Assembly: GCA_028708095.1 (NCBI GenBank)
Contig: JAQVZQ010000001.1
Location: 1,272-65,271, forward strand
Reading direction: 5' to 3'
Origin: Dysgonamonadaceae bacterium
Lineage (GTDB): Bacteria > Bacteroidota > Bacteroidia > Bacteroidales > Dysgonomonadaceae
Length of the DNA: 64,000 bases
Shown: positions 5,091 to 60,490 of the stretch, piece by piece
Layout of the letters: every line of letters begins with the position of its first letter
How positions within the stretch are numbered: position 1 is the first letter of the stretch
The notes under the pieces: model-generated
What the model saw: only the letters and a program-made list of their open reading frames with translations
Databases searched by the model: none
What the model was told of the DNA's origin: nothing
Made by a program: the position numbers and the translations under genes

Positions 5091-5705
5091 ATGAAAACAA
5101 AAGAAATTTTACTGCAGTTAATTGAAGAACTTGATAAGTTTGAACATTCGCTTTCGGAAAACGAAACTCCCGATATGAACGATTTTATAGCCTTCTTATG
5201 CAACACCAAAAACATAGAACAACGCTATTCATCAGAAGTAGAAATAGCACAGCACGTAAGTTTGCTTCATCGTTATTCAAAATTTTACATGAAAAAAGTG
5301 TTGAAAAATTCGGCCATGAAAACTATGGAAGAGTACACCTACTTAATACCACTCCTCCACCGTGAAAGCCTTTCTAAAACTGAGTTAAACAGCATGAATG
5401 TGATGGAAAAAACATCGGGAAATGAAATTATAAAAAGGTTGCTCAAAAAAAATTTAATCAGACAGCAACGCAACCAGTTAGACAGACGCAGTATGTCTGT
5501 ATTTATTACCGATAAAGGGCGAAATGAAATCCTCAAGCTCTACCCAAATTTGCAAAAAAGCGCAACGTTGCTCTCATCTAGTTTGTCAACTTCACAAAAA
5601 ACCATTCTAGCAAACAGCATGAGAGAAATGAGCCATTTTCATAGTGATATCTTCATTAACGGAAAAGACAAAACAATAGACGAGATTATGCAGGAGCTAA
5701 CGTAG
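5091..5705 (+). CDS. MarR-family transcriptional regulator
   Basis: 204 aa with a winged-helix region (LSKTELNSMNVMEKTSGNEIIKRLLKKNLIRQ..DRRS). It is divergent from the exporter operon. Confidence 0.7.
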   Translation: MKTKEILLQLIEELDKFEHSLSENETPDMNDFIAFLCNTKNIEQRYSSEVEIAQHVSLLHRYSKFYMKKVLKNSAMKTMEEYTYLIPLLHRESLSKTELNSMNVMEKTSGNEIIKRLLKKNLIRQQRNQLDRRSMSVFITDKGRNEILKLYPNLQKSATLLSSSLSTSQKTILANSMREMSHFHSDIFINGKDKTIDEIMQELT

Positions 5706-6180
5706 CAAAAACCAAGCATGAACTTCTTGCTGGTCAATCCCTGTCCACGTTGAAATAGCAACTCAAAAACTATAGTGCAATATATACCGCTATCCAAAAA
5801 CTGGAATGGATTGCAATTCTCCCAATTATTCAACATGGCTTCTCGATAAGTTGTTTATATACACACCTTGATATAACTGTCGGGTAATCAAGACCTGTTG
5901 TGATAATATCGCAGACAAACTTCTTCTTGTTTAAATGTGATTGAAAAGGGGATTCAATCAAATTAAAATATCATCTACTTCATATTTTTGTTGTTGCAAT
6001 AAAAATTGAACTCACAGACAATTGTCATCAAATCAACTTTTTTTAATCTCTCCTTGCCACTATACCAAATAAACATTATAAGATAATACTATCACCGATT
6101 TACACAGTCACTTCTAAAACAGTTTTATTGTTATTGTATATGCCGCAATTAGTAACTATATACCTAATGCACCAATACAC

Positions 6181-6737
6181 ACCAGTAACACACTTTAATT
6201 ATACATTTACATCCTTGTTTCAACATTTACTGAATGTTATTTCTTCTCTTACTCCTAAACCACCCACGAAAAAATGGGATTATCTTCTGTAAGCTACTAA
6301 AAACTTACGCAATTGTTACTTTATTATTGTTTTCATAGCAAAACAAGTTGATATAGTAGCTTATTTGAAACAGACCTACCTGCGGAGCCTCCGTTGCAAG
6401 GTCTGTTGTTAACAGAGTGTTAAACGGAGCCTCCGATTAACACTCTGCTCGCACATTTGTTAAAGCGGAGCCTCCGTTTAACAGTCAACAGTGAACAGAC
6501 CGACCAACGGAGGCTCCGTTGTAAGGAAATTTGCAAAAAAACTCTTTTTTCATAAGTTTTTGGTCCGTTTTGGGTTATTTTGTTGTTAAATTGAATGATA
6601 ATGGCTCTCTACAGTTAAAATTTCGTTGTATAAAAAAATAACAAGCGATTAGAACGAAGAAAAAAGCTGCCTAAACGTCGCAATTAGATGCAAATACTTG
6701 TTTTTGGTATGAAAAATTTGTGGATAAGAGTGATTTT
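6181..6737 (+). repeat. Copy A of a conserved noncoding element of about 555 bp with a four-hairpin CGGAGSCTCCG array (array at 6369-6521)
   Basis: Aligns by eye along its whole length with 50519-51076 in the same orientation. No conserved ORF is present. Confidence 0.85.
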
Positions 6738-6958
6738 ATAAAAATATATAAGGTCATTGATATAAACCTTTCATAGGTTCAAAAAATCTAACCTTTCATT
6801 ACTGAATTTCCTGTAATGATACTCTTTGCATATTATAGAATGGAAGAGCTTGGGTTTACTTGAAGATATTAGATAACAAAATTATTTCTTTAAATACAAG
6901 TATAATTTTGTACTTTTGCAGTGTTGATTAATAAAACGTAAAGCATAAAAATAAATAG

Positions 6959-7918
6959 ATGGTTATTTTATCCGTTTTAATTATAGCAGGATTTACTGCA
7001 TTGATATTTGGCGCTAATTGGTTAGTGGATGGTGCATCGGCTCTTGCCAAAAAATATAATGTGTCAGATTTAATTATTGGTCTAACCATTGTTTCTTTTG
7101 GTACATCAGCCCCCGAATTGGTGGTAAACTCTGTGGCATCATATAATGGGTATTCCGATATAATTTTAGGCAATATACTTGGCAGTAACAATTTCAACCT
7201 GTTTATTACACTTGGTATAGCTGGGTTAATCTATCCAATGAGGGTACATATATCAACAGTATGGAAAGAGATTCCCATTTCGTTTGGTGCTGCATTCCTT
7301 TTCCTATTGATGGCTAACAATTTTTTCTTTACTGATAACACCGCTATATTAAGGATAGATGGAGCAGTGTTACTGTTATGTTTTGCTGCATTCCTCTTTT
7401 ATATTTTCAGAGAAATGAAAAAAGGAACAGAGCCAATTGAAGAAATAACCGTTCAACACATGTCTGGCTTAAAAATAACAGCCTTAATTATAATAGGATT
7501 AGCAGGGCTGATTGTTGGCGGACAACTTGTAGTTGATAATGGCGTGAAGTTGGCAAAGGGACTGGGCGTTAGTGAAAAAATTATTGGCTTAACAATTATT
7601 GCTATCGGAACTTCTTTACCTGAGCTTTTAACATCTGTGGTGGCTGCTTTAAAGAAAAACAGTGGGATAGCCATGGGAAACATCATTGGATCAAATATAT
7701 TCAACATTCTACTAATCCTCTCCATTAGTTCTTTAATAGCTCCAATTAATTTCTTACCCTATTTCAATATAGACCTACTGATATTATTAGGAGGCACAAT
7801 TTTTCTTTTCCTCTCTATGTTTGTTGGACAAAAATTTAAATTGGAGAGATGGCAAGCTGCTTTTCTTTTGATTTTTTATTTGACATACATGGGCTATTTA
7901 GTTTGGTTGGAATTATAG
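6959..7918 (+). CDS. Ca2+/Na+ antiporter, CaCA family (YrbG-like)
   Basis: 319 aa, polytopic, with two alpha-repeats GTSAPEL and GTSLPEL. Confidence 0.9.
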   Translation: MVILSVLIIAGFTALIFGANWLVDGASALAKKYNVSDLIIGLTIVSFGTSAPELVVNSVASYNGYSDIILGNILGSNNFNLFITLGIAGLIYPMRVHISTVWKEIPISFGAAFLFLLMANNFFFTDNTAILRIDGAVLLLCFAAFLFYIFREMKKGTEPIEEITVQHMSGLKITALIIIGLAGLIVGGQLVVDNGVKLAKGLGVSEKIIGLTIIAIGTSLPELLTSVVAALKKNSGIAMGNIIGSNIFNILLILSISSLIAPINFLPYFNIDLLILLGGTIFLFLSMFVGQKFKLERWQAAFLLIFYLTYMGYLVWLEL

Positions 7919-8017
7919 GTGTTTTTCATTTAAGTGCATGACTAAATAATAATGCATCACCAGCAACTTAGCGAGGCTTTAGGGTACTTTTCTTTTCTCA
8001 AAATATTTTTTAGATGA

Positions 8018-8303
8018 CGGAAATGAAGATCAACAGTTGAAAATCGTTTCCGTCGTCTCGGAAATGTTTTGTAACAGAAGAAACTCACTTTTTAAGCAAA
8101 AAAAAGCATGTTTTTGTGTCACAATCATCATTCCCCTTCATTTATTTGACAACTCACACTCTAAAGCTGTATTCTTGGTATCGAATGCATTGTTTTTCAC
8201 CTGTTTTTTTCAATTTAAGTCATTTCTCTCTCATTTTTTCATTCTAAAATATTTTTTTGTTGACGGATTCGATTTTCAACAGTTAATCGTTCAATCCGAC
8301 ACC
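8018..8303. repeat. MITE-like unit bounded by inverted copies of the dispersed hairpin repeat (CAACAGTTGAAAATCG..TCCGTC)
   Basis: 8031-8057 is a near reverse complement of 8262-8288. Each end is itself a hairpin. The same unit recurs at 60.83-60.90 kb. Confidence 0.5.
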
Positions 8304-8556
8304 TGAAAAATATTCTTACTCGATTTTAAACTAATCTTCGAGCTTACTTCACGTATATTCCATCATTTTACATTTAGTAAATCAAACAATCATATCGCTG
8401 TATACTTTTGACATTATTAAAAGATTTCACTCAATATTTTTCTGCATTTTAAAATAACTTCTCAGCAAGAAAGTTAAACTCTATGTCCATATACAACAAA
8501 TAAGGCTTCACATCAGTTATACCAATGAAAGTGAAGTTTATAAATGTATTAAAGCA

Positions 8557-9486
8557 ATGAATCAAATGGAGAAAATGAAAGCATATGTACGTATTAATGA
8601 CATTAAGCAAGACGTGGAATTAGCGAATGTACCTATACCTGATATAATGGCTGATCAAGTACTCATAAAAGTAAAAGCTTTTGGTGTTGGAATTCATGAT
8701 AGATATTTTATTCCTAACCCTATAGATTATCCATATGTGATTGGTTCTGAAGGTGCAGGAGTCATAAAAAAATTAGGTGAGAGTGTAATAGGTTTTGAAA
8801 TTGGAGATAGGGTTATATTTACCACAGTTCTTCAACCTCAAGGTGGAAGTTGGGCAGAGTATGCTGTATCTAAATATACATCGTTAATACGAATGCCAGA
8901 CGAAATGACATTTGCACAAGGATCTGCAGTGCCCATTGCAGGTAAAACAGCTATAGAAAGTATGCGGGAACTGAATCTTAACAAAGGAGATCACCTCTTC
9001 ATTGCAGGAGCGTCTGGAGCAATTGGCTCTTTGGTGATACAATTGGCTGCATCCAAAGGTATTCACGTATCTGCTTCTGCATCTAGAGGAAACCATAAAT
9101 ATATGGAGTCTCTTGGAGCAGATAAATCAATAGATTATAAAGACACTGATTGGATAAATAAAATAAAAACATGGTCAAAAGGTGGTGTAGATGCTGCTTT
9201 GGCTATTCAACCAGGGACAGGCATACACAGTTTGAAGGTAGTTAAAGAAGGTGGCAAATTAATTACAGTTTCTGGTGATAATGTAATGACTGAACGCAAT
9301 ATTGAAGTAAAACAAATGGGTCATGAGGAAGAAACACGCCATAAGATAATTCAAATGGTTAGTGACATTGTTGAAGGTAAAATTAACCTCATTATCGAAG
9401 ATGAATATCCATTCGATGATGCGTTGAAAGCATTGGAAAAAACTGAAACACGTCATGCGAGAGGAAAATCTGTTGTTATCTTATAA
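8557..9486 (+). CDS. Medium-chain dehydrogenase/reductase (quinone oxidoreductase-like, NADPH-dependent)
   Basis: GroES-like N-terminal part plus a Rossmann motif AGASGAIGS. Confidence 0.8.
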   Translation: MNQMEKMKAYVRINDIKQDVELANVPIPDIMADQVLIKVKAFGVGIHDRYFIPNPIDYPYVIGSEGAGVIKKLGESVIGFEIGDRVIFTTVLQPQGGSWAEYAVSKYTSLIRMPDEMTFAQGSAVPIAGKTAIESMRELNLNKGDHLFIAGASGAIGSLVIQLAASKGIHVSASASRGNHKYMESLGADKSIDYKDTDWINKIKTWSKGGVDAALAIQPGTGIHSLKVVKEGGKLITVSGDNVMTERNIEVKQMGHEEETRHKIIQMVSDIVEGKINLIIEDEYPFDDALKALEKTETRHARGKSVVIL

Positions 9487-27638: not shown

Positions 27639-27710
27639 GGCGCGATAGTTCAATGGATAGAATAGGAGTTTCCTAAACTTTAGATCCGGGTTCGATTCCC
27701 GGTCGTGCTA
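27639..27710 (+). tRNA. tRNA-Arg (anticodon CCT)
   Basis: Hand-folded cloverleaf: acceptor GGCGCGA/TCGTGCT, D arm GTTC..GAAT, anticodon stem GGAGT/ACTTT with loop TTCCTAA, T arm CCGGG-TTCGATT-CCCGG. No encoded CCA. Confidence 0.88.
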
Positions 27711-27882
27711 CTTTTTTAAATATATTGGTTTGGCAAGTCAGATGCATGTGTGTTTTTTGTACATGTAGCAAGTTTCAACGAATAGATATGTAAATCTAAT
27801 TATCATTGTAAGCTATGATTTAGCTGGTTATTTAAGTATTAAAGTTGTACTTATATAGTTTGTTTATTATTGATAGAATCTT

Positions 27883-28628
27883 TCAGCTTTTCTTTTCAGA
27901 ATTATACTTAACTAACTTTTCCCAATCTATATCACCTGATACTTTGCAGTAATCTGTAGTAAACTCTTTGGTAAATTTATTTAGCTTTTGTGCATACGAA
28001 TTCATAAACGCATCATTTTTCTCTTTAGCTTTATATCCCAGAGGTTCTATAATTTCTGTGTAAAGATTTTCTTCACCCGAAATAAATTTCCAAAATTCTT
28101 GCCCACAGAATTTAAAATAATCCCTTTATCAGGATTATTATCTCTACCGTAACAACAATCATTGATAGCAACAATATTCATTTGAGAATTACTTGTTCGC
28201 AATGTCTTTTTGGCAGTTCTGAAATCATCTTTTAATCTTTTTATCTGAGAACTATTACCCCAATTAGTCCCAGACTTTATAGTTACAATAAAACGTCTAT
28301 CTTCATAATCGAACTCAAGGTCGATTCCAGGAATACCAGATTTCCAACCATTGTATACTTTCTCATTAATAAAGATGGCAAGTCCTTCAAGCCAATCTCC
28401 AAAAATCCCCTCTTCACTTGATGAAAGATGAGCATCAACAATACTTCTTACAATTTCATCTGCTGTTAAAACGTTTTTTGCTTTATAAAGATAAGGATTC
28501 TTCCGTTTTAGTATTTTTGAAAGTTGTAAGTTATCCAAGCTTTGGATGCGTTTTTCATGAAACACTCCAATGTTATTTTCAACGTATTGCAATACGTCAT
28601 TTAGGTTCATATTTTTCATTCTCTTCAA
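27883..28628 (-). pseudogene. Type II restriction endonuclease (PD-(D/E)XK-like), frameshifted
   Basis: The ORF 28047..28628 ends prematurely. The sequence continues without stops in another frame (..DYFKFCGQEFWKFISGEENLYTEIIEPLGYKAKE.. to the stop at 27883). The frame change lies near the AAAGGG run at 28118-28128. Confidence 0.7.
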
Positions 28629-29451
28629 ATAAAACTAAGTCTACGGGTATTAATTTCTCTTTAACCATTTCATAGTACTCTGGAACAATATCTATACCTA
28701 CAGAGTTCCTTATCATTCTATTTGCCACTTCCAGTGTTGTGCCTGATCCCATAAACGGATCCAGAACAACATCGTGTTCTTTGGTAAATAGTTTTATAAA
28801 CCACTGAGGCAACTCTTGTGGAAAAGCTGCACTATGATTTTTATTATTGCATTCTGTAGCAAGATGAAGTACATTTGTTGGGTAAGCCATATCTCTGTCT
28901 AACCAGTTTGATATTTTTTTACCGAAACCACTACCTACTTTTGAATTATCTCTTATTTTATCTGTTTCGGAAAGATTTTTCAAACGAGCTTTAGCCCAAT
29001 CTCCCATAGGTACCATAACCTCGTCTTGATACATGTGAAATTTTTTTTCTTTATTGAATTGCAGCAGTCGTTCCCATGAATCCCTAAACCGATTAGGCCA
29101 TTTACCTGGGAAAGAGTTTTTTTTATGCCAAATAAACTCTTCTGTCCAATACCATCCTTGTTTACGCATAGCTAATATCAACTCCATTACATAGGTGCTT
29201 CTCTCTCCATTAACTACTTTTTCTTTTATATTTAAAATAAAAGTTCCGGAAGGTTTTAATATACGTAGTAATTGTTCTGAGATTGGTAAAAACCATTCTA
29301 CATAATTATCTGGATGTATTCCTCCATAAGTGCTTTTTCTTTGGTCTGCATAAGGAGGTGATGTCATAATTAAATCAATAGAGTTATCTCCTAACAATTT
29401 TAGTTTTTCCTTACTATCACCTAAATATATATCAGCAAATAATTTCTTCAT
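28597..29451 (-). CDS. Beta-class N4-cytosine/N6-adenine DNA methyltransferase
   Basis: Motif IV TSPPY near the N-terminus and motif I DPFMGSGTT near the C-terminus. It overlaps the endonuclease gene. Confidence 0.9.
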   Translation of the reverse strand: MKKLFADIYLGDSKEKLKLLGDNSIDLIMTSPPYADQRKSTYGGIHPDNYVEWFLPISEQLLRILKPSGTFILNIKEKVVNGERSTYVMELILAMRKQGWYWTEEFIWHKKNSFPGKWPNRFRDSWERLLQFNKEKKFHMYQDEVMVPMGDWAKARLKNLSETDKIRDNSKVGSGFGKKISNWLDRDMAYPTNVLHLATECNNKNHSAAFPQELPQWFIKLFTKEHDVVLDPFMGSGTTLEVANRMIRNSVGIDIVPEYYEMVKEKLIPVDLVLFEENEKYEPK

Positions 29452-30372: not shown

Positions 30373-31590
30373 ATGAAACATTTTCTGATAATAGGACTGC
30401 TTTTGATTTCACAGCTTGGATTTTCACAAATAAAAGAAATAAATCCAACATCAACGAGACTTTTAGATTTGAGCACTTCGGGCGAAAAGGAATTTAACGA
30501 TAATCTTAAAACCTATGAAAAGATTAAAGACAAAATGTCAAATGGTGTAGAGTTTGACGATTTGTCTCAACAAGAGAAAGATGCATATTCAAAAGTTGAT
30601 GAAACAATGGAAGACTATTGGGATATAATTGGAAATGGTTGTAGTTGGTATTGTGGTGGTGGAGCTAAAGAAGTTACCGCTTCAAGTTATTTAAAATCGC
30701 AAGGAGCAAATAGTTACGTCCCTCAAAATGCACATGATTTAAATTATAAAAATGTGTGGGCCGAAGGTGTAGATGGTTATGGAATTGGTGAATATCTTCT
30801 GTATACATTTGAGGCAACATCACCCAGAATTAACGAGATTATCATTGTAAATGGACATGTGAAAAGTAAGACAGCATGGGAAAACAATTCACGGGTAAAA
30901 AAACTCAAGGTGTACATTGATAATAAACCTTATGCCACTTTGAATTTAAAAGATATACGTGGCTCACAGTGCTTTAAAGTTGACCCAATAGGGAATGGTG
31001 ATAGAGAGAATTGGGATGCCCTCAAAACAAAACCAGACTGGACATTGAAGTTTGAAATACTTGATGTTTACAAAGGATTAAAATACGATGATGTTGTAGT
31101 TTCTGAGATTTATTTTGATGGACTTGATGTTCATTGTTTCGCAAAGGGAACAAAAGTTATGTTAGCAGATAAATCAACCAAAAATATAGAGGACTTACAA
31201 ATAGGTGATAAGGTTGCCTGTTTGGACTTTGAAACTAAGTCAATAATATCTGCCAAGATTGAGAAACTGGAAAAAGTAATACATCACGGACTTGTGACTT
31301 ATCAGTTTAAAAGCGGATTAGAGATAACCGCAACACAAGACCATCCATTTAGAATTAAAGACAAAGGTTGGGCTTCTTTAAAACCTGACAAATCTAATCA
31401 GTACAAAGGATTTGAGAAAATTCAAAAAATAGCGATTGGAGATTCATTTATATCAACAAATGGTTCAGAGAAACTGATGGCGATTAACTATCTGGAAGGA
31501 AAGCAAGAGACATATACTATTTCAAAACTAAGTTGGGGAGACAATTTTATAGCAAACGGATTGATAGCGGGTGTTGAAGAAATGAAGTAA
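30373..31590 (+). CDS. Secreted NADase-type/discoidin-like glycan-binding domain protein fused to a Hint (bacterial intein-like) domain
   Basis: Signal peptide, then CSWYCGG..NVWAEGVDGYGIGEYL..NSRVKKLKV, then a Hint module starting at CFAKGTKVML with TATQDHPF and ending at NFIANGLIAG. The stop comes 5 codons later. Confidence 0.75.
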   Translation: MKHFLIIGLLLISQLGFSQIKEINPTSTRLLDLSTSGEKEFNDNLKTYEKIKDKMSNGVEFDDLSQQEKDAYSKVDETMEDYWDIIGNGCSWYCGGGAKEVTASSYLKSQGANSYVPQNAHDLNYKNVWAEGVDGYGIGEYLLYTFEATSPRINEIIIVNGHVKSKTAWENNSRVKKLKVYIDNKPYATLNLKDIRGSQCFKVDPIGNGDRENWDALKTKPDWTLKFEILDVYKGLKYDDVVVSEIYFDGLDVHCFAKGTKVMLADKSTKNIEDLQIGDKVACLDFETKSIISAKIEKLEKVIHHGLVTYQFKSGLEITATQDHPFRIKDKGWASLKPDKSNQYKGFEKIQKIAIGDSFISTNGSEKLMAINYLEGKQETYTISKLSWGDNFIANGLIAGVEEMK

Positions 31591-31639
31591 AATCGTTTTT
31601 CCTGTTTCATCGCTTATATTTACGCTCATACTACAGTAC

Positions 31640-32120
31640 CAATCTCCTCTTTTCAAACTTTTGGAACAAAGAACATGTACCCATAAACCATTTTAAGCGC
31701 AGGTTTTTTGATGAATGGGACAGCAAAGAGTGGCAACTATACTTTGAGTTTCTAATTGCTTGTGCAACACAATATCTTACTACAGGACTAAAAAGAGTAT
31801 CCTACTCAAAGGATGTGGACAATTACTGGATCTATTTCTCGAATGATATAGTTCTGGAAGAGTTTGAACGAATATTTGATGTGATGAGGGCGAACGGAAA
31901 ATTTAAAGTGTTAGACTTTTTGAATGAGTATAAGAAAAACTCACCACTTAGAAGTGAGAAGCTTTTTCACCACAATAATACAGGAAAAATGATTGATGCT
32001 TATGTCAAGAAACATGGGATAAATATAGAGTTTCAAGCAAAAAAGAGATTGTGGTTCTTTTTGGATAATGAAAATGAAAATAACTCAGATGATAAATTGG
32101 TTGCTAACAGTGTAAATTAG
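31640..32120 (+). pseudogene. 3' fragment of a P4/VirE-type primase-helicase gene from a mobilizable element
   Basis: An in-frame stretch ..NHFKRRFFDEWDSKEWQLYFEFLIACATQYLTTGLKRV.. precedes the annotated ORF 31815..32120. The N-terminal ATPase/primase part is absent. Confidence 0.55.
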
Positions 32121-32173
32121 TTGCTTTTTTAGCGATTAGGTGTCACCGGTTACAGCTAAATACGGCAAGTTAC

Positions 32174-32353
32174 ACCCAAGGTTACAGCTTATGTACTTGT
32201 ATTTCAGTGCGGTGACAGCTAATACAGCTATATTTAAAGTAACGCACGAGAAAGTATAATAGTGTAATAGTAATATAAATATACAATACCTAATTTAGCC
32301 GTTTTAGCTGTCACCCACCTGACTATCAGCAAATTTAGCTGTAACCTTGGGTG
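32174..32353. repeat. Nested perfect inverted repeats (oriT- or inverton-like)
   Basis: CACCCAAGGTTACAGCT (32174-32190) pairs with AGCTGTAACCTTGGGTG (32337-32353). The inner pair is GGTGACAGCTAA / TTAGCTGTCACC. Confidence 0.85.
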
Positions 32354-32712
32354 TCACCAGCTGTAACCAGCCGTCACTTTAACCGTAACGGTTGTAACCA
32401 CCCCCCCAATCTTCATCAAATTGATGACCCCCCTAATCTATGAAAAATGAAATCCCCCCCCACAAATGGAGGGATTTTCTTTTTCTATCCGTCCACCAGA
32501 TATTACAACTATATTATTTGTGTTTTTTCTTGAAAACAGACCGATTTTCATGCTGAAATAGTTGTATATTTCAATTGCTTTTCCTATCTTTATACGGTGT
32601 TATAGAAAGGATTAGCGGTCATTTAGTGACAAAGCAAACCACCGTTAATTTTGCGCTCTTTGAAATGTGAAATCTATGTTAACCCGACATAAATATATAA
32701 GAAAACTAGGAG

Positions 32713-33077
32713 AAAACATTTCTTACGCAAAAGAAACGGCGATCGCCCGGCGAAAATTGAATCTTACGCGTAAGAAATGTTTTGCAAAAGAAAAATGAGG
32801 CTTTTTTGCCCAAAAAAGAGAGAAAAGAAGGATGAATGGACGAAATTTTGCTGAGAATTGAAAAAACTACAGAAAAACAGTGCACTCGATGCCGAAAAAA
32901 GAAACTTAGACTGGCGACTGTCGAATAAAACGTGGGGAATGGCACGTATGACACAAGAACATGCCTTTGTTCACGTAGGAAATGAGTTTAGACGGTCTTT
33001 CATCACTTCTTACGCAAACAAAACGATTTTCGCCGTGCCATCTTCATTTCCTACGCGTAGGAAATGTTTTGCAAAAC
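32713..33077. repeat. Pair of palindromic modules of about 70 bp (TTTCYTACGCGTARGAAATGTTTTGCAAAA) flanking about 215 bp
   Basis: There is a 16-bp stem between 32711-32726 and 32768-32783, and a perfect 22-bp palindrome CATTTCCTACGCGTAGGAAATG near 33046-33067. Confidence 0.8.
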
Positions 33078-33235
33078 TTTATTGTTAGTAAAATTAGACC
33101 AATAACTAAATATGCTCTTTGTAAATAATTATTATTAATTCCGTACTAAAAGGTATGCCTTCGCAAAGGGCTATCAATTTTGACAAAACAAAAAAAGAAA
33201 GTCATACCGGATAGTACACAATTTTATCTAGTATC

Positions 33236-33379
33236 ATGATTACACAAGTAATTAAAATCAAGCGAGTACCTTACTCTCGACTGATGAAATCGGAAATGGC
33301 AGACTATGCTGAAAAGACAATTGGCATAGTGGACAAGCACGAACCAGATTCGGCTCTGTTTTTAAGAATTGAAAATTGA
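33236..33379 (+). pseudogene. N-terminal fragment (47 codons) paralogous to the 51162..51953 protein family
   Basis: MITQVIKIKRVPYSRLMKSEMADYAEKTIGIVDKHEPDSA has the same N-terminal pattern as QEISLSKLLKLELPQFVKKVTNCIEEHNPEA. Confidence 0.35.
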
Positions 33380-33533
33380 AAATGTGTGTCTTGCGATTGG
33401 ACAATAATAGCAGAGAGTTTATTCATCTGTGATAATTATGAGAAGCCTCTATATTATACCAGAAACGCCCTCTACGGGCGTCTCTTTACAATCATCTTCA
33501 GCATCTATTTGTATTACATCATCAATATATCTC

Positions 33534-34175
33534 TTAATGTTGATGAGCTCCAGGTCCATTATCAATAATTTCATGAATTCCTTCCAATGTATGCGTATAA
33601 TCGACATAAGCATCAACATATTCTCTTCCTTTTTCTATGGATTGATCTTTAACCAAATTCAGCTCTGCTACTTTTTTGTACTTTTCACGCACAACCTTCT
33701 CGATGTGAGCAATAAATTTTGAAGCCAAGTTGTCAATGTCTTTGTCTTCTATTGACTTATCTGCCATAACAACGATTGGGGATGCACTTCCAGCAGGTTT
33801 TAATCCAGTATAACCCACTCCTTCTGTTGCACGGTGCAACCTAACCAATGTTTCAAGAAAATGCTTTTCTACAATTGCATAAATCTCAGTATCACCATTT
33901 TTCAATTCATATGTTTTATTGAACAACTTGGTAATCTCTGGTTCATCTGTTGCATCTACCCATTTTAGCACCAAGTCCACGTTGTTTAGTGCCAGGGCTT
34001 GTTGAGCTTCTTTTATTACTGGTCCGTCATACGAATCGCAATGTGCAAAAGCACTTAGTGTATTCATTAATAACAACGCAAACAGCGCTAATGTAACTAA
34101 TTTTGCTTTGATAAACTTTGTTTTCTTACTGTCTTTATTAAGGCTTTGTTGTGATAATCTACTTATTAATTTCAT
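33534..34175 (-). CDS. Secreted DUF6448-like protein
   Basis: Signal peptide followed by AHCDSYDGPV, the hallmark I recall for DUF6448. Confidence 0.55.
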   Translation of the reverse strand: MKLISRLSQQSLNKDSKKTKFIKAKLVTLALFALLLMNTLSAFAHCDSYDGPVIKEAQQALALNNVDLVLKWVDATDEPEITKLFNKTYELKNGDTEIYAIVEKHFLETLVRLHRATEGVGYTGLKPAGSASPIVVMADKSIEDKDIDNLASKFIAHIEKVVREKYKKVAELNLVKDQSIEKGREYVDAYVDYTHTLEGIHEIIDNGPGAHQH

Positions 34176-49161: not shown

Positions 49162-49313
49162 AATTTATTATGGAACAAAGATAAATTTGTTTTGTTTAGA
49201 TGAACTAACTGGTAAGAGTTGAGAACAAAAACACTTAATAGTATGTAAAGTTACAAATAAATGTTGCTATGAGGTGTTTTATTCATAAATTTGTGATTAA
49301 TTTACTACATCAC

Positions 49314-50288
49314 ATGGATTATAAGAATCTTGCAGTAACAATAATAAGAGAGGAGTTAGAGAAATTTGATTTGCTGTATAACTCAATCAGAAGTGAGAAC
49401 CCTCATCTTCAGGAGATGGTTGAGCATATGCACAAAGCCGATGGGAAAAAGATACGCCCCATTCTTTTGCTTCTTACTGCAAAAGCACTGGGCGAGGTAA
49501 ATGATAAAACCTATCATGGTGCTGTTACTATAGAGCTTTTGCATACCGCTGCACTTATTCACGATGATGTGGTGGACGATGCTGATATGAGACGCGGACA
49601 ACCTTCACTCAATAGCATTTACGATAACCGAAAGACAGTTCTTTGTGGCGATTTTTTTCTCTCTTCTGCACTTACACAAAGTGTGCTTACTGAGGATCTG
49701 GAAATTGTATCTACTATTGCTAAGTTAGGAAAGAAATTGGCTGAAGGTGAGCTACAACAACTGTTCGTAGCTGACAATGTGATAATCGACGAAGCTGAAT
49801 ATTTCAATATTATTCGTCAAAAAACAGCTTCTCTGTTGAGTGCTTGTATGAAAATAGGTGCTCTTACGGTTGAAGCAGATAAAGAAGTGGTGGATAAATT
49901 CACAGAATTAGGCGAACATATTGGTATAAGCGTTCAGTTGCGCGATGATATTTTCGATTATTATGATGCTAATATCGGCAAACCAACTGGTAACGACATT
50001 AGAGAAGGCAAAATAACCCTGCCTTTACTGTATGCTTTCCAACACACAAGCTCAACAGATAACCAAAAGGCAAAAACCATTGTACATAACAAAGATTTTA
50101 CCGACGAGAATATCTCATACCTCATCAACTTTGCTAAAGAAAATGGTGGAATCGATTATACCTATTCTTTTTTAGAGAAATCAACCGATAAAGCAAAACA
50201 AATTGTATCGGATATGAAATCTATTTCGAATAACATGAAGGAAGCTTTCTTTTCGGTAATACAATACCTGAAAGAGAGAAAATATTGA
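49314..50288 (+). CDS. Polyprenyl diphosphate synthase (IspB-like)
   Basis: DDVVDDADMRRG and DDIFDY aspartate-rich motifs. The ATG at 49314 is preferred. Confidence 0.88.
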   Translation: MDYKNLAVTIIREELEKFDLLYNSIRSENPHLQEMVEHMHKADGKKIRPILLLLTAKALGEVNDKTYHGAVTIELLHTAALIHDDVVDDADMRRGQPSLNSIYDNRKTVLCGDFFLSSALTQSVLTEDLEIVSTIAKLGKKLAEGELQQLFVADNVIIDEAEYFNIIRQKTASLLSACMKIGALTVEADKEVVDKFTELGEHIGISVQLRDDIFDYYDANIGKPTGNDIREGKITLPLLYAFQHTSSTDNQKAKTIVHNKDFTDENISYLINFAKENGGIDYTYSFLEKSTDKAKQIVSDMKSISNNMKEAFFSVIQYLKERKY

Positions 50289-50518: not shown

Positions 50519-51076
50519 ACCAGCTAACACTTCTTTTTTCTTCAATTACCTCCTTGCTTCCGCATTTACTGAACGTTATTTCCACATTTACTCCTAAATA
50601 CCCACGAAACAATGGGAATATCTACTGTGAGCTACTAAAAACTTACGGTATTGTTACTCCATTATTGTTTTTATAGCAAAACGTAGTGATATAGTAGTTT
50701 TTTTAGAACAGACCAGCCAGCGGAGCCTCCGTTACAAGGTCTGTTGTTAACAGTGTGTTAAACGGAGCCTCCGTTTAACACACTGCGCACACATTTGTTA
50801 AAGCGAAGCCTCCGTTTAACAGCCAATAGTGAACAGACCAACCAACGGAGGCTCCGTTGTAAGGAAATCTGCAAAAAAGCCCTTATTTCATATGTTTTTG
50901 GTCTGTTTATAGTTATTTTAATGTTAAAATGAATGATAATGGCTCCCTCCATCTTAAATTTCGTAGTATTAGAACCCTAACAAGTGATTAGAACCAAGAA
51001 AAAACTCTCTAACCATACCATTTAGGTGCAAAAACTTGCATTTAGCAATGAAAAACCTATGGATAAGGAAGATTTG
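50519..51076 (+). repeat. Copy B of the conserved noncoding element of about 555 bp (hairpin array at 50706-50859)
   Basis: Collinear with 6181-6737 and has the same four CGGAGSCTCCG hairpins. Confidence 0.85.
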
Positions 51077-51161
51077 AAGAGTTAATGTGTTAGCTTTAAG
51101 GTTAGTTTGAGTATATTTGTGTTCGGAAATCAATGCAAACTCAAATTTTAAGTCTGAAAAC

Positions 51162-51953
51162 ATGCAACAAATACAAGAAATCAGTCTCAGCAAACTACTA
51201 AAACTAGAACTTCCTCAGTTTGTAAAGAAAGTAACCAATTGCATTGAGGAGCACAATCCGGAAGCACTAAAATTACAGGATGCATTAAATTTATTGATTG
51301 AGCAACGCTCCAAGATGAAGCTTTTGATTGCCCCTTATGGCAAGCATCCTTTGACTGATGATATACAACAACTTCATTTAGAGAGACTAAAGTATGTTGC
51401 AGCTATCAACATGCATATGAAGCTGTTGAACAAAGTAAATTATGAAGGTACAGAAAGTTTAATAATTACTGCGAAAGCATTGGTGTACGGACACTTTAAC
51501 GAACTAAGAAGAAACAATCAAGTTACTATTCATCAAACAATTATTGCTTTTTTCTTACGTTTAAAAGAAAACCCTGAAATTAAGGATGCTTTGGTTGATC
51601 TGGGCTTTGAGCATTATCTAAACAAATTAGAAGAAACAAACAATCAATGTTATGAGCTGGATATGGAGAGGAATAGGCTCAAATCTAAAAGGCTTAAAAT
51701 AGATAGTGGCGCTATACAAAAGGAGGCACAACAAGTATTGAGGGCAATATTCGAGCAGATAAACTTTTATCAGGTTACCTACAAAGAATTGGATTATGGG
51801 CCACTGATTGCTCAATTGAACGAATTGATAGTAAAGTTTTCGAGCTTAATACGGACACGAGCAACGGCTAATAAAACCCGTAAAATAAAATCTAAGGTTA
51901 AAAACGCTTTATCCCCACCACTACTACAAGTATGGATGAGGAACAAAACATGA
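51162..51953 (+). CDS. Hypothetical helical protein (DUF6261-like by recollection)
   Basis: About 263 aa, helical, no catalytic motifs. It starts about 85 bp after repeat copy B. Confidence 0.5.
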   Translation: MQQIQEISLSKLLKLELPQFVKKVTNCIEEHNPEALKLQDALNLLIEQRSKMKLLIAPYGKHPLTDDIQQLHLERLKYVAAINMHMKLLNKVNYEGTESLIITAKALVYGHFNELRRNNQVTIHQTIIAFFLRLKENPEIKDALVDLGFEHYLNKLEETNNQCYELDMERNRLKSKRLKIDSGAIQKEAQQVLRAIFEQINFYQVTYKELDYGPLIAQLNELIVKFSSLIRTRATANKTRKIKSKVKNALSPPLLQVWMRNKT

Positions 51954-54908: not shown

Positions 54909-57900
54909 TTAATCTAATGTTTTGGTAGTCGTTGGTATAAACTTAACTTTATTCTTTAATGTGATTATTACCACTCCATTTTTTCCTTCATCCGCATACT
55001 TTGATATAGCTTCTTCATTTTTCAAAACAGAGATAGATTCAATATCAGATTGGTTTATATCCTCTATATCAAATCCTTTTGGCATTTTTTCGCCGTCAAC
55101 TATGACTAAAGGCTTGTTAGTAATAAGTTTATCTTTTATGAGAGTAGTAACTCTCCCGTTAAGGTTATTCGTAGCTTCGTCCTTGTTTAATCTAAAAACT
55201 ACAGGTATCGTTAACCTCACATTCACAGCCTTTCCTTTTTGCATTCCAGGCTTCCATTTTGGCATTGCTTCTATCACTCTAATTGCTTCTGCATATAAAG
55301 AAGGATCTGGTCCTCTCACTATTTGAGCATCGGATATACTACCGTCTTTGTTTACAATAAAAGAGGTAATAACCCGTCCTTGAATTTTATTTCTCTTAGC
55401 TTGCAATGGATAAATAATATTGTCAGCAAAATATTTCTCTAATGCAGGCTTCCCTCCAGGAAATTCAGGTTGTTCCTCTACTGCTACAAAAACATCTTCT
55501 CTCTCTTCTTTTATTTTAGCAATATTATTTTTTACTGAAGGTGTAAACTTAACACCCTTCTTTAAAGTAACTAATATAACCCCATTTTTTCCTTCTTCCC
55601 CATACTCCTTTATGTCCGAATCATCTTTTAGAATAGAAAAAGACTCTATATCTTCAGGATTAATATCCAACATATGAAAATCACTCCCCATTTTCACACC
55701 ACCAATCAGGACTAAGGGATTTCCATGTCTTTCCACTATATTTTTTCTTGTTGTGTCTTTTTCACCTTCCTCTAACTTAAACAAAACTGGCAGTGTATAC
55801 CTCACTTTTACAGGCGCCCCTCTTTGCGTACCAGGGCTCCATTTAGGCATTGTTTTTATTACTCTGACAGCTTCTGCATCAAGCAGTGGATGAAGGCTGC
55901 GCACGACCTTTATGTTAGAAAGGCTGCCATCTTTGTTGACGATGAAATCGACAACTACTCGCCCTTCAATATCACTGTTTGCAAGCTCAGCTGGAAAACG
56001 AGTGTTCTCTGCAACGAAAGCCATTAAAGCTTGCATACCGCCTGGAAACTCAGGTTGATCTTCCACAACCACAAATACATCATCATCAACCTTCTTCTTC
56101 TCAGCGACAAAGGATTTAGTATAAACAATAACAACTCCATTCTTTCCTTCATCTCCGTAAATTGCTAAGGCTGACTTATCTTTTAAAATAGAGACTGATT
56201 CAATATTCTCTTTAATTTGATTTAAGTCAAATCCTTTCCCCATTTTCACATCATCGATAACGTAAAGAGGCTCACCATTTCCAAACTTCTTTGCTAATGC
56301 TTGAGGAGTTGCTTCTTCCATCGAACCGTAACCACGCACAATTACTTCATTCTTATCTTCATTATCTTTTTTACTATTATCTGAAACTTTCGTTTCTGAA
56401 GCTTCTTTTGTAGAAATCATTACAGCCCCATTTTTCCCCTCTTCTCCATAAGTTGCCATGGCTGCTTCCTTTTGATAAATTGTTGTATGTTCAATATCTG
56501 ATCTGTCGATTTTGCTCATATCAAATTCTTTATCCATCTTCACGCCATCAACTATGAATAGTGGCTTGCCATCTCCCGTTTTATCGGCTATGGACAATAC
56601 GGTATATCCTCTCATTGCAACATCAAAAGAGGCTTTTTCACCATCTAAACGAAAAGCAAATTGTGCATTGTATTTTACTTTTAGAGGTTCATCATCTTCT
56701 GTGTATGTGAATTGTTTCAATTTAGGCATTGCGTTGATTACTCTAATCGCTTCTTGATTTAAGGATGGAGAGAGACCTACTTCAATTTTAGAATTAATAA
56801 TTGAACCATCTTCTTCGATTATAAAACTAGCAATAACATCTCCATGTACTCCATTCTCTTTTGCATCCTGAGGGTATTTCACTTCTGATTTGAGAGCAGC
56901 AGCCAACTTATCTAAGTTTTTAGTTACTTCATGAAATCTAGATTTATCTTTAGAATCTTTATTCTCTATTTTCACAGGCTCTTGTTGCTGTTCATTCTGT
57001 TGAGCATACACGCTGTTTGCTGTAATCAGCAGCAGTGCCAATGGCAATATACTCAAGTACTTTGTCAGCTTTCGCATCGGTGATTTCTCACTGTTCATCA
57101 TTATAATTCTCTGTTTTAGTTGTGATACATTGAAGTTATTCACTATCTGAACTGCAGTTTCATGATTAGTCATTTGTAATAGATGGTATTGGTATTCGGT
57201 AGATTCTACTCCTTCTTGCAGCACGGCTTGGTCTGCCAAGTATTCTAAGTTGATGGCGATGTCTCGCTTCATCACCCACACAACAGGATTCCACCAAAAG
57301 GCTATGCGAAGTAGCTCTGCCAATAGTATGTCGAGTGAGTGCCACTGACGAACATGTGTATGCTCGTGCAGTAGAATCTGTTTCAACTCTTTTTCTGTAT
57401 GTGTATCTGTATGGATAAATATCCAGCTAAAGAATGAAAAGGGGGTTATCTCATCTTTTAGTTGATGGAAAAGATAACCAAACAGGCTTCTTTTCTCGCT
57501 TCGCGATTTAATACGGATGATTGAGAAGAGTTGGCACAAGAAGCGCAAGCTTAAGAGAGACACTCCAATTAACAGAATGTTTTTACCAATTAGCATCCAG
57601 TCAAAGGGCGTGGTTGCTTCTGCTGCATCGTCAACTATCATCTCTCCCATGGATATCTCTCCCATGGATATCTCTGCTATATATACAGAGGTTTCTATTG
57701 CAACTGTTTCGGGTGTCATGTTGATTAAGTTGCCCAGCATAGTCACATTCATAATAGGGTAGGAGAGTGAGAAAATGATTGCCGACAAAAAGTAGTACCG
57801 CCTTATTCGTATAAAAGTGTCTTTGCGAAAGAACAGCAGATAGAGCAAATAGAACATTGCCAGTGCTATATTTACTTTTACGAAATATATAAGTAGTGTT

Positions 57901-57911
57901 TCCATTGTCAT
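54909..57911 (-). CDS. BlaR1-type M56 peptidase sensor fused to three TonB-C domains and four plug-like modules
   Basis: HEHTHVRQWH zinc motif, 4 TM, TonB_C repeats (..QPEFPGG..RV..F.VNKDGS..) alternating with PL.V.DG.KM..ES.S.LK...YG.EGKNGV modules. Confidence 0.85.
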   Translation of the reverse strand: MTMETLLIYFVKVNIALAMFYLLYLLFFRKDTFIRIRRYYFLSAIIFSLSYPIMNVTMLGNLINMTPETVAIETSVYIAEISMGEISMGEMIVDDAAEATTPFDWMLIGKNILLIGVSLLSLRFLCQLFSIIRIKSRSEKRSLFGYLFHQLKDEITPFSFFSWIFIHTDTHTEKELKQILLHEHTHVRQWHSLDILLAELLRIAFWWNPVVWVMKRDIAINLEYLADQAVLQEGVESTEYQYHLLQMTNHETAVQIVNNFNVSQLKQRIIMMNSEKSPMRKLTKYLSILPLALLLITANSVYAQQNEQQQEPVKIENKDSKDKSRFHEVTKNLDKLAAALKSEVKYPQDAKENGVHGDVIASFIIEEDGSIINSKIEVGLSPSLNQEAIRVINAMPKLKQFTYTEDDEPLKVKYNAQFAFRLDGEKASFDVAMRGYTVLSIADKTGDGKPLFIVDGVKMDKEFDMSKIDRSDIEHTTIYQKEAAMATYGEEGKNGAVMISTKEASETKVSDNSKKDNEDKNEVIVRGYGSMEEATPQALAKKFGNGEPLYVIDDVKMGKGFDLNQIKENIESVSILKDKSALAIYGDEGKNGVVIVYTKSFVAEKKKVDDDVFVVVEDQPEFPGGMQALMAFVAENTRFPAELANSDIEGRVVVDFIVNKDGSLSNIKVVRSLHPLLDAEAVRVIKTMPKWSPGTQRGAPVKVRYTLPVLFKLEEGEKDTTRKNIVERHGNPLVLIGGVKMGSDFHMLDINPEDIESFSILKDDSDIKEYGEEGKNGVILVTLKKGVKFTPSVKNNIAKIKEEREDVFVAVEEQPEFPGGKPALEKYFADNIIYPLQAKRNKIQGRVITSFIVNKDGSISDAQIVRGPDPSLYAEAIRVIEAMPKWKPGMQKGKAVNVRLTIPVVFRLNKDEATNNLNGRVTTLIKDKLITNKPLVIVDGEKMPKGFDIEDINQSDIESISVLKNEEAISKYADEGKNGVVIITLKNKVKFIPTTTKTLD
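56991..57812. repeat. 822-bp tract identical to 59131-59952 (offset 2140 bp)
   Basis: Line-by-line identity; the first mismatch is at 57813/59953. It covers the sensor/peptidase half of both blaR1 paralogs. Confidence 0.9.
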
Positions 57912-58044: not shown

Positions 58045-60051
58045 TTATAGCTTATTATCACCCTTATCCTCTAAACTCAATCTGAATATCACAGGCATTT
58101 TGAAACTTACATTAACAGCTTCTTCTTTTTGCGTTCCTGGTTTCCATAAAGGCATCATTTCAATTACTCTAATGGCCTCAGCATCTAACAATGGGTCAAC
58201 GCCTCGTACAATTTCAATGTCTGAAACACTGCCATCTTTATTCACTATAAAAGAGGTGATAACTCTACCTTCAATTCCATTTTTATGAGCTTCTACAGGG
58301 TATTTGATATTGTCTCCCAAAAACTTCATCAATGCCTGAACTCCTCCTGGAAATTCGGGTTGATTTTCTACTACCATGAAAACATCATCTCTATCACTTT
58401 TTCTTTTGCTATCTATTGTTTCAGGTTTTTTAGTTGGAGTTTTAGTTTTGTCCTTTAAAGTAATTAATATAACTCCATCTTTTCCTTCCTCTCCATATAC
58501 TTCTAAAGCTGATTTATCTTTTAAAACAGATATAGACTCTATTTTTGTTGGTATAATTGAGTTCAATCTGAATCCTTTTATCATTTTCACATCATCAACA
58601 ATGTAAAGAGGATTGCCGTTTTCAAGTTTTTTTATTAAAGATTCTCGTGAGGCTTTATTCATAGAGTCGTATCCACGCACTATAACCTCATCTCTTTCTT
58701 TGTCTTTTAAAATCTTAATGCTTACAGTAGTCATTTCTGACGTATCCTCATTCTCATCTAATTTGAAAGAAATTGGAAGCGTGTACCTTACTCTCACCCT
58801 CTCGTCTCTTTGTAATCCAGGATTCCATTTTGGCATTGCTTCAATAATCCTAATTGCCTCTTTATCTAAAGAGGGGTCCACACCACGTACAATTTGAACA
58901 TCAGATAGAGAGCCATCTTTTTCAATTATATAATTAACTATCACTCGTCCTTGTATGCCATTTTCTTTTGCAATTACAGGATACTTCATTTCTTTTTCTA
59001 TGAACTCCATCATTGCCTTTACATTTCCCTTAAAACTTGGTTGTTTTTCTACCACCACAAATATCTCATCGCTCTTGCTCTCTTTCTTTACAGGGTCTTG
59101 CTCTTGTGGAGGTTTCGCTTCTTCTTTCGGTTCATTCTGTTGAGCATACACGCTGTTTGCTGTAATCAGCAGCAGTGCCAATGGCAATATACTCAAGTAC
59201 TTTGTCAGCTTTCGCATCGGTGATTTCTCACTGTTCATCATTATAATTCTCTGTTTTAGTTGTGATACATTGAAGTTATTCACTATCTGAACTGCAGTTT
59301 CATGATTAGTCATTTGTAATAGATGGTATTGGTATTCGGTAGATTCTACTCCTTCTTGCAGCACGGCTTGGTCTGCCAAGTATTCTAAGTTGATGGCGAT
59401 GTCTCGCTTCATCACCCACACAACAGGATTCCACCAAAAGGCTATGCGAAGTAGCTCTGCCAATAGTATGTCGAGTGAGTGCCACTGACGAACATGTGTA
59501 TGCTCGTGCAGTAGAATCTGTTTCAACTCTTTTTCTGTATGTGTATCTGTATGGATAAATATCCAGCTAAAGAATGAAAAGGGGGTTATCTCATCTTTTA
59601 GTTGATGGAAAAGATAACCAAACAGGCTTCTTTTCTCGCTTCGCGATTTAATACGGATGATTGAGAAGAGTTGGCACAAGAAGCGCAAGCTTAAGAGAGA
59701 CACTCCAATTAACAGAATGTTTTTACCAATTAGCATCCAGTCAAAGGGCGTGGTTGCTTCTGCTGCATCGTCAACTATCATCTCTCCCATGGATATCTCT
59801 CCCATGGATATCTCTGCTATATATACAGAGGTTTCTATTGCAACTGTTTCGGGTGTCATGTTGATTAAGTTGCCCAGCATAGTCACATTCATAATAGGGT
59901 AGGAGAGTGAGAAAATGATTGCCGACAAAAAGTAGTACCGCCTTATTCGTATGAAAGTGTCTTTGCGAAAGAACAACAGATAGAGCAAATAGAACAATGC
60001 CAGTGCTATGTTTACTTTAGCGAGGTATATAAGTAGAGTTTCCATTGTCAT
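58045..60051 (-). CDS. BlaR1-type M56 peptidase sensor fused to two TonB-C domains and one plug-like module
   Basis: Residues about 21-330 are identical to those of 54909..57911; the first 20 residues differ at three positions. The C-terminal array is different. Confidence 0.85.
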   Translation of the reverse strand: MTMETLLIYLAKVNIALALFYLLYLLFFRKDTFIRIRRYYFLSAIIFSLSYPIMNVTMLGNLINMTPETVAIETSVYIAEISMGEISMGEMIVDDAAEATTPFDWMLIGKNILLIGVSLLSLRFLCQLFSIIRIKSRSEKRSLFGYLFHQLKDEITPFSFFSWIFIHTDTHTEKELKQILLHEHTHVRQWHSLDILLAELLRIAFWWNPVVWVMKRDIAINLEYLADQAVLQEGVESTEYQYHLLQMTNHETAVQIVNNFNVSQLKQRIIMMNSEKSPMRKLTKYLSILPLALLLITANSVYAQQNEPKEEAKPPQEQDPVKKESKSDEIFVVVEKQPSFKGNVKAMMEFIEKEMKYPVIAKENGIQGRVIVNYIIEKDGSLSDVQIVRGVDPSLDKEAIRIIEAMPKWNPGLQRDERVRVRYTLPISFKLDENEDTSEMTTVSIKILKDKERDEVIVRGYDSMNKASRESLIKKLENGNPLYIVDDVKMIKGFRLNSIIPTKIESISVLKDKSALEVYGEEGKDGVILITLKDKTKTPTKKPETIDSKRKSDRDDVFMVVENQPEFPGGVQALMKFLGDNIKYPVEAHKNGIEGRVITSFIVNKDGSVSDIEIVRGVDPLLDAEAIRVIEMMPLWKPGTQKEEAVNVSFKMPVIFRLSLEDKGDNKL
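59131..59952. repeat. Second copy of the 822-bp identical tract
   Basis: See 56991-57812. Confidence 0.9.
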
Positions 60052-60078
60052 ACTATTTAAATACAGTTATATGCTGTT

Positions 60079-60441
60079 CTATTTCCTGTTTTTTTCTATG
60101 AGTTCAATAATCTCTGTCAATTCTTCGGTGGTTATTTTCTGTTCTTTGGCAAAGAAAGATACCAACTCTTTGTACGAATCGTCGAAATAGCTCTTTACTA
60201 AGTCTGAAAGAAAATGACGTTTATAGGCTGCTTCAGTAATTTTAGGAGAATATACTTTCACATTGCCATACTTTCGCATGGATAGATAATTTTTCCTTTC
60301 TAAATTATTGAAAATAGATGCTACAGTGGTGTAGGGTGGTTTTGGATCATCCATTTTGTCCACTACATCTTTTATAGCACACTTTTCGAGCTCCCAAACG
60401 AGGAGCATAACAGTTTCTTCTTGAGGTGTTAATGGTTCCAT
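60079..60441 (-). CDS. BlaI/MecI/CopY-family winged-helix repressor
   Basis: 120 aa; N-terminal LTPQEETVMLLVWE.. winged helix. It lies directly upstream of blaR1. Confidence 0.85.
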   Translation of the reverse strand: MEPLTPQEETVMLLVWELEKCAIKDVVDKMDDPKPPYTTVASIFNNLERKNYLSMRKYGNVKVYSPKITEAAYKRHFLSDLVKSYFDDSYKELVSFFAKEQKITTEELTEIIELIEKNRK

Positions 60442-60467
60442 AATTCATTATTGTTATTTAGTTGTTG

Positions 60468-60490
60468 CAAATCTACGAATAAATCGTAGA
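60468..60490 (-). promoter_or_regulatory. Candidate blaI promoter/operator: palindrome TCTACGA-N5-TCGTAGA overlapping a TAGATTTG -7 box
   Basis: Palindrome at 60472-60490; the -7 box on the minus strand is at 60468-60475, about 27 bp upstream of the blaI ATG. Confidence 0.5.

Follow-up and report, generated by a model that had tools for sequence, protein, structure and literature searches.

A palindromic element of four hairpin units at unrelated intergenic sites, a candidate interspersed DNA repeat of an uncultured Bacteroidales lineage

The window, by which we mean the whole 64-kb stretch of DNA analysed here, encodes proteins whose closest named relatives come from “Bacteroidales bacterium” and the Dysgonomonadaceae. 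Two of its intergenic regions hold a copy of the same non-coding element, one between a MarR-family gene and a yrbG-like Na/Ca exchanger gene (copy A) and the other between the polyprenyl synthetase gene ispB and a hypothetical DUF6261 gene (copy B; Table 1). The original prediction described 6181-6737 and 50519-51076 as collinear, co-oriented and similar throughout, and this was borne out by a MAFFT alignment (~85% identity over ~540 columns, same strand, very few gaps) and by nhmmer borders that fall within a few bases of those positions. It was also right in its labels for the flanking genes and in calling the flanks unrelated (~40-48% identity in the sequence just outside the two copies), and the distances of about 220 and 85 bp that it gave to the downstream same-strand gene were measured as ~221 bp for copy A and ~85 bp for copy B. 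Checks likewise bore out that the copies have neither a conserved ORF nor terminal inverted repeats, and that no transposase adjoins them. The term “two-copy” holds for the 64-kb window, where the nhmmer family profile found no copy besides A and B, but not beyond it, since a metagenome scan turned up another locus on contig L131. The palindrome CGGAGNCTCCG, with at most one mismatch allowed, occurs eight times in the 64 kb, always within copies A and B, against 0.3 occurrences expected by chance.

The element is laid out as a leader of ~175 bp, a palindromic core of 160-220 bp and a tail of ~205 bp. Its core consists of four tandem stem-loops of 41-42 bp that start 42, 41 and 42 bp apart in all copies, each tipped with the palindrome CGGAG(C/G)CTCCG, and the number of units is four at all three loci as well as in a strain variant that spans copy B (L159). 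In unit 3 the stem is formed by TGTTAAA pairing with TTTAACA, and the tip that is degenerate in copy B is intact in the strain variant. The closing arm of unit 4 in copy A, GGTCCGTT, is displaced ~40 nt downstream to 6565-6572, and unit 2 of copy B carries an A-T to T-A double change at 50754/50782. The whole core is furthermore an inverted repeat of itself, with units 1-2 able to pair with units 3-4; when the family profile is compared with its reverse complement, the two match over ~220 bp (E ~1e-24). Folded as single-stranded DNA, the core region (241 nt) reaches -54 kcal/mol with z = -7.7 against shuffled sequences, and as RNA the core (163 nt) gives z of -9 to -13 on either strand, whereas leader and tail fold no better than their shuffles (z -2.1 to +1.1). 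Identity between copies is likewise uneven, 91-94% in the core versus 67-86% in leader and tail.

Table 1. Positions of the element, its parts, its neighbours and other features in the window
Feature	Position	Strand	Remarks
MarR-family gene	5091-5705		upstream flank of copy A
Copy A, whole element	6190..6738	+	nhmmer profile, E 1.7e-185; alignments
Copy A, leader	6190..6367	+	78-84% conserved between copies; no significant fold
Copy A, hairpin unit 1	6369..6407	+	9-bp outer stem AACAGACCT/AGGTCTGTT; tip CGGAGCCTCCG 6383-6393; DNA fold -11.4 kcal/mol, z -4.8
Copy A, hairpin unit 2	6413..6447	+	17-nt arms, 94% complementary; tip 6425-6435; DNA fold -14.4 kcal/mol, z -8.8
Copy A, hairpin unit 3	6458..6483	+	TGTTAAA-g-tip-TTTAACA; tip 6466-6476; DNA fold -7.4 kcal/mol, z -5.1
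Copy A, unit 4	6494..6573	+	direct copy of unit 1; tip centre flipped, CGGAGGCTCCG 6508-6518
Copy A, tail	6574..6738	+	67-86% conserved; no significant fold
Copy A, tip starts	6383, 6425, 6466, 6508		
-7 promoter motifs of yrbG	6903..6918 (starts 6903/6911)	+	TAATTTTG, TACTTTTG; outside the element
Na/Ca exchanger gene (yrbG-like)	6959-7918		downstream flank of copy A
Polyprenyl synthetase gene (ispB)	49269-50288		upstream flank of copy B
Copy B, whole element	50529..51077	+	nhmmer profile, E 1.5e-192
Copy B, hairpin unit 1	50707..50745	+	tip 50721-50731
Copy B, hairpin unit 2	50751..50785	+	perfect 17-nt arms (100%); tip 50763-50773; DNA fold -17.9 kcal/mol, z -9.0
Copy B, hairpin unit 3	50796..50821	+	degenerate tip CGAAGCCTCCG 50804-50814
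Copy B, unit 4	50832..50907	+	tip CGGAGGCTCCG 50846-50856; distal closing arm TTGGTCTGTT 50898-50907; DNA fold -14.3 kcal/mol, z -4.0
Copy B, tip starts	50721, 50763, 50804 (one mismatch), 50846		
-7 motif of the DUF6261 gene	51112..51119	+	TATATTTG; outside the element
DUF6261 hypothetical gene	51162-51953		downstream flank of copy B
~75-nt repeats	8000-8076 (inverted partner 8242-8314), 32713-32789, 33000-33076		
~75-nt repeats, continued	60796-60869, 61083-61156, 61514-61569		
tRNA-Arg(CCT)	27639-27711		directly beside the restriction endonuclease/methylase pair
EcoO109I-type restriction endonuclease	28047-28628	minus	
N6/N4 DNA methylase	28597-29451	minus	

In 45 units drawn from the element family and from arrays of other Bacteroidota, the two arms of a unit pair at 8.9 of 13 positions, compared with 6.0 of 13 when arms are swapped among units. 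Because own-arm pairing exceeds swapped-arm pairing while the stems vary and the tip stays fixed, what is conserved in the units is the forming of a hairpin and not a binding site alone. This bears on an explanation we regard as quite unlikely, in which the element would serve the host as a DNA module to which a dimeric protein binds. Its four 11-15 bp palindromes would then form an array of the operator, iteron or centromere-like kind, with a part in organising the chromosome, in replication or in regulation. Such a module would fit the identity of the palindromes and their regular 42/41/42 bp spacing (~four helical turns) in all copies, the conservation of leader and tail in sequence without structure, and the half-sites of certain Prevotella repeats treated below, which combine with themselves and with each other and recur at a 22-bp period as half-sites of a protein do. 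However, the complementarity runs 7-17 nt past the palindrome through non-conserved sequence, which would be unnecessary for a site bound on double-stranded DNA and is therefore an argument that hairpins form; beside the copies there is no recurring par, rep or regulator gene; and close relatives live without the element, which speaks against a core chromosomal function.

The centromere and origin versions of this idea can be followed somewhat further. The F-plasmid sopC also has tandem units of ~43 bp, each with a short palindrome that a dimer could bind, but it is a plasmid locus beside sopAB with 12 units and no long hairpin stems, whereas the present element is chromosomal and dispersed with no partition genes nearby. 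A sopC-like centromere or an iteron origin would be marked by an adjoining partition or initiator gene, and the copies have no such neighbour. A replication origin was rejected: the tail of copy A contains a perfect DnaA-box 9-mer (6719-6727), but this is at chance level, the count of DnaA boxes being 25 against 21.6 expected. GC skew and gene-strand bias were too weak to orient the element relative to replication. Nor does the element qualify as a CRISPR array, as its units follow directly on one another with no spacers between them and cas domains are absent from the window.

The third copy (L131 1283-1801) is 83-85% identical to both window copies and lies between a DUF4886 gene and a beta-lactamase-family gene. 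All three copies are situated between co-directional genes and share their orientation, an arrangement with a probability of ~1/64 by chance, counted on only three cases. For comparison we used 26 loci (L132-L158, ~275 kb) around the yrbG and ispB orthologues of related genomes, whose proteins are 78-99% identical for yrbG and 79-86% for ispB. With the exception of one strain-level contig (L141), these loci are devoid of the element and even of a single GGAGNCTCC. Other genes lie 170-205 bp upstream of yrbG in the relatives, one locus reading DUF4886, 205 bp, yrbG. The PolA-ispB synteny is kept, and ispB is followed in one group of relatives by 108 bp and a peptidase gene, and in another group by 805 bp and the same thioredoxin-family gene that is found beyond copy B and DUF6261 in the window. 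Since the relatives keep the flanking genes yet lack the element at both sites, copies A and B are insertions gained in this lineage. Three unrelated loci and empty orthologous sites thus uphold the first word of the suggestion, made in the original prediction, of a “mobile leader/promoter cassette”. Searches of plasmid and phage collections by blastn returned no match to the element, and a scan of viral sequences returned unrelated coding repeats only. As a separate observation, the DUF6261 gene is absent together with the element from a relative that keeps ispB and the thioredoxin-family gene (L158 10975-11780), and gene and element may have arrived together.

The remainder of that suggestion, a promoter or leader, did not hold up, because the downstream genes have their own -7 motifs of the Bacteroidetes form TAnnTTTG outside the element (Table 1). 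Upstream of yrbG, the homology with element-free relatives begins exactly at these motifs. Inside the element neither strand has a conserved TAnnTTTG, scans for sigma-70-type promoters and intrinsic terminators stayed at chance level, and ispB has its own terminator-like hairpin ahead of copy B. There is no coding signal either. Substitutions show no codon periodicity, and the longest frame that stays open, with 62-72 codons, crosses the GC-richer core on the minus strand. The 64-aa minus-strand ORF, open in copy B and the third copy, was rejected as coding: copy A has a stop at codon 2, the differences between copy B and the third copy are 13 non-synonymous versus 4 synonymous, and a database of 5.8 billion proteins has nothing that matches it.

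A structured RNA, another of the original suggestions, is unsupported. Only the core is structured, with the RNA z-scores given above, and the leader and tail behave like shuffled sequence. We consider it unlikely that the copies form a small family of paralogous structured ncRNA genes of ~0.5 kb, in which four hairpins would present the fixed tip CGGA-GSC-UCCG to an RNA-binding partner in the manner of multi-hairpin sponge RNAs. The conserved length with almost no indels at ~15% divergence, the pairing kept in hairpins of differing stem sequence, a G-U pair on the plus strand of unit 1 in all copies, and the shared orientation of all three copies with both neighbouring genes are what one would like to see for such RNAs. 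Against them stand the promoter and terminator scans just described, and Rfam, where copies A and B, the third copy and one Prevotella element gave no match at gathering thresholds and just generic hairpin noise at permissive ones. The sole match at gathering level in the window is a tRNA, and the best sub-threshold matches are generic miRNA-precursor hairpins of 15-30 bits versus thresholds of 58-211. Neither strand folds better than the other, and the Prevotella counterparts lie in mixed orientation relative to genes. An independent ncRNA gene would be recognised by a promoter and terminator of its own together with covariation beyond simple hairpins, and this combination was not found in the element. 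Covariation between copies amounts to one pair, whose score is matched by 133 of 500 shuffles. A nested long-hairpin model from RNAalifold was discarded as a poorer fit than local hairpins, since the double change 230/258 breaks the nested pair 230/299 and keeps pairing in the local hairpin.

The strain variant of copy B adds a time scale to these comparisons. Its flanks are 99.5-99.6% identical to those of copy B (~0.4% difference), whereas the element itself is 98.4% identical, with nine differences in 553 bp. Six of the nine fall within 108 bp of the core (50716-50823) and include both halves of a stem pair (50754, 50782) as well as the degenerate tip of unit 3. At six of the nine differences the variant has the state common to copy A and the third copy, and at a seventh that of copy A only. 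Such clustering points to a gene-conversion tract from another copy or to hairpin-templated mutation, of which it is the expected product. It follows that the higher similarity of the core between copies need not mean purifying selection, and that the sole covarying pair, having changed within strain-level time and inside a cluster, is no evidence for RNA. The element also interrupts five independent contigs, of which three stop at 6456-6464, one at 6657 and one at ~50853. A repeat whose copies have k-mers and palindromes in common should cause such breaks, which suggest further genomic copies.

Taken together, we put at about one in two the probability that the element is a non-autonomous, ~550-bp interspersed palindromic foldback DNA repeat, present at several unrelated intergenic sites in one narrow uncultured Bacteroidales lineage. 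In this scheme the hairpins would act at the DNA level, extruded or single-stranded, and would be recognised by an enzyme that another part of the genome provides in trans, for which a hairpin-binding HUH/RAYT-like transposase or a site-specific recombinase are the candidates. Gene conversion or hairpin-templated repair may keep the copies uniform, and this would account for a core that is more alike between copies than leader and tail. Any effect on neighbouring genes, e.g., a transcription barrier between co-directional genes, would be secondary. That said, a divergence of ~15% with few indels and a fixed set of four units looks more like long-term constraint than recent selfish spread, and the co-orientation of the copies with co-directional genes could reflect a transcription-linked role. 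Few indels, the four-unit count and the consistent orientation thus keep functional readings alive. In addition, terminal inverted repeats do not rise above chance, target duplication is not consistent across the copies, and the window is free of transposase genes.

The ends of the element are instructive in this respect. Like a classical MITE it is small, non-coding and found at several unrelated sites that are empty in relatives. The best inverted match between terminal 12-mers is only 9-10 of 12, which 81-200 of 200 shuffles also reach, and no IS5/ISPg motif occurs at the ends within three mismatches. A database match to a known IS/MITE end or to a known ncRNA, which the original prediction had named as evidence that would overturn it, was looked for and did not appear. 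No transposase, RAYT (Y1) or integrase was detected in the window ORFs scanned. The third copy is bracketed by a 19-nt direct repeat (17/19 identical, 1215-1233 and 1793-1811, spacing 578 bp), whose left member overlaps the DUF4886 stop codon and whose right member forms the right end of the element. On this basis one could imagine a miniature integrative element moved by site-specific recombination, with an att-like core at its right end duplicated at the left junction, and the Prevotella elements carry similar sequence at both ends, TTTTGTAAAGATTTTTGG and TTTGTAAAAATTTTTGAC. We think this very unlikely, as copies A and B show only weak equivalents of the direct repeat, no integrase lies near any copy, and no obvious target sequence is common to the three insertion sites.

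Returning to the interspersed repeat, the closest known systems in terms of taxonomy are MITEPgRS (MITE464) and BrickBuilt of Porphyromonas gingivalis, a member of the same order as the host. Both are strictly intergenic, non-coding and modular, with lengths from a few hundred bp up to 1 kb; their copies are scattered over unrelated loci and cause breaks in assemblies. They are built from repeats of 41 nt (MITEPgRS) or bricks of 23 nt (BrickBuilt) whose number varies widely, up to 14 or 23, and their ends are IS5/ISPg1-type terminal inverted repeats, GAGAC..TTGCA (PMC4596501, PMC2575886). Our element resembles them in having end segments around internal head-to-tail repeats, here four, and the 41-nt repeat of MITEPgRS is close in length to the 41-42 bp units. 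It differs in having no IS5-type ends and exactly four units in every copy, and, comparing descriptions, in that its units are hairpins with a fixed palindromic tip. The REP/BIME/REPIN sequences are similar in another way, as clusters of short imperfect palindromes in alternating orientation that jointly make a longer hairpin, as our core does; they also lack terminal inverted repeats and target duplications, are intergenic and are presumed to be handled as DNA hairpins. However, REP units are ~35 bp long with a conserved 5′ GTAG, which adjoins none of the hairpin units here, occur in hundreds of copies without conserved unique arms of 170-200 bp such as those of the element, and have a cognate RAYT gene, which is missing from the window ORFs scanned. 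BOX elements of Streptococcus pneumoniae (boxA-boxB(n)-boxC) consist of a head module, tandem units of ~45 bp in variable number and a tail module; they have strong predicted secondary structure and are intergenic and dispersed, with ~100 per genome. The head-units-tail plan is the same, but BOX is shorter, belongs to another phylum and has no sequence relation to the element.

As these membership features are not all found together in it, we do not assign the element to any named family. Most likely it is a novel repeat of the BIME/BOX/MITEPgRS type outside every named family, the comparison with MITEPgRS and BrickBuilt being one of description rather than of sequence. As far as databases and literature show, it is undescribed, and a literature search for its palindrome turned up only incidental primers and linkers. 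If the reading as an interspersed repeat is true, it adds a hairpin-centred repeat family without terminal inverted repeats to the Bacteroidales, in which few such elements have been described so far (the P. gingivalis MITEs). Repeats of this kind fragment metagenome assemblies, as the broken contigs illustrate, are hot spots of clustered sequence change and, where recently inserted, offer markers separating close lineages. The practical consequence is modest: the element should be annotated as a repeat and not as an RNA gene or promoter.

Genome contigs were also scanned for two CGGAGNCTCCG sites 25-36 nt apart. Many of the matches are GC-rich coding repeats that encode P-E-(S/T/A/P)-P. In Prevotella sp. 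UMGS937, at least four copies of an intergenic foldback element of ~500 bp were found (L056, L059, L080, L115), which are 78-83% identical to each other, self-complementary over ~350-380 bp and centred on two palindromes of the form CAACGGAG(S)CTCCGTTG. The Prevotella palindrome matches unit 4 of the window element over 17 nt, six bases beyond the search pattern, so that AACGGAG(S)CTCCGTT is an extended palindrome common to both. The palindrome pattern is also matched at no fewer than five loci of a second Prevotella MAG, and at some of these the heptamers AACGGAG/CTCCGTT recur every 22 bp. Two kinds of Prevotella half-site, AACGGAG/CTCCGTT and AAAAGTG/CACTTTT, are found in homo- as well as hybrid combinations. 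These repeats are thus like the window element in size, intergenic site, self-complementarity and central palindrome, but they have two palindromes and not four, they carry the extra half-site AAAAGTG, and a profile search found no homology between their leader or tail and those of the window element. In the literature found, we saw no description of the Prevotella repeats either.

The shared palindrome of 15-17 nt hints at a trans-acting factor common to both groups. With low confidence we extend this to the proposal that AACGGAG(S)CTCCGTT at hairpin tips is what a hairpin-specific enzyme or binding protein recognises across Bacteroidales (the Dysgonomonadaceae-like lineage of the window and Prevotella). 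These elements would then be a new class of mobile or domesticated element, moved by a mechanism of its own without terminal inverted repeats and target site duplications and with rapid hairpin-templated turnover; alternatively, they would be multi-hairpin regulatory RNAs of a new family. A Chitinophagaceae MAG and others have arrays with this tip too, whose relation to the element is doubtful, the search pattern having selected for the tip, and no gene family recurs beside the hairpin arrays of other Bacteroidota among the matches listed. A curious case was met in Bacteroidia bacterium MS495-25 (L040 6150-6260), where three near-perfect hairpins tipped GCGGAGGCTCCGC lie within a 300-aa ORF (5869-6771). 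The tip would read AEAP in frame, and by analogy the hairpins may be an in-frame palindromic insertion like the Rickettsia palindromic elements.

The window holds a second, unrelated family of imperfect palindromic repeats of ~75 nt with the arrangement AAAACATTTC..stem-loop..GAAATGTTTTG. All of them lie in unusually long intergenic gaps (7918-8557, 31590-33534 and 60051-61851), and two pairs share a spacing of 287 bp. The second of these gaps, 1.9 kb long and rich in repeats, follows a plus-strand gene (30373-31590) for a protein with an NADase-translocation F5/8 type C domain and a Hint (intein-like) domain, which resembles a polymorphic toxin. Nearby, the EcoO109I-type endonuclease and DNA methylase genes beside tRNA-Arg(CCT) look like a small restriction-modification island at a tRNA gene (27639-29451). 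Two tandem paralogous BlaR1-peptidase/TonB_C genes on the minus strand (54909-57911 and 58045-60051) share a block of 300 nt that is 99% identical (56980-57279 and 59120-59419), and their internal repeats of ~75 nt encode repeated TonB_C modules.
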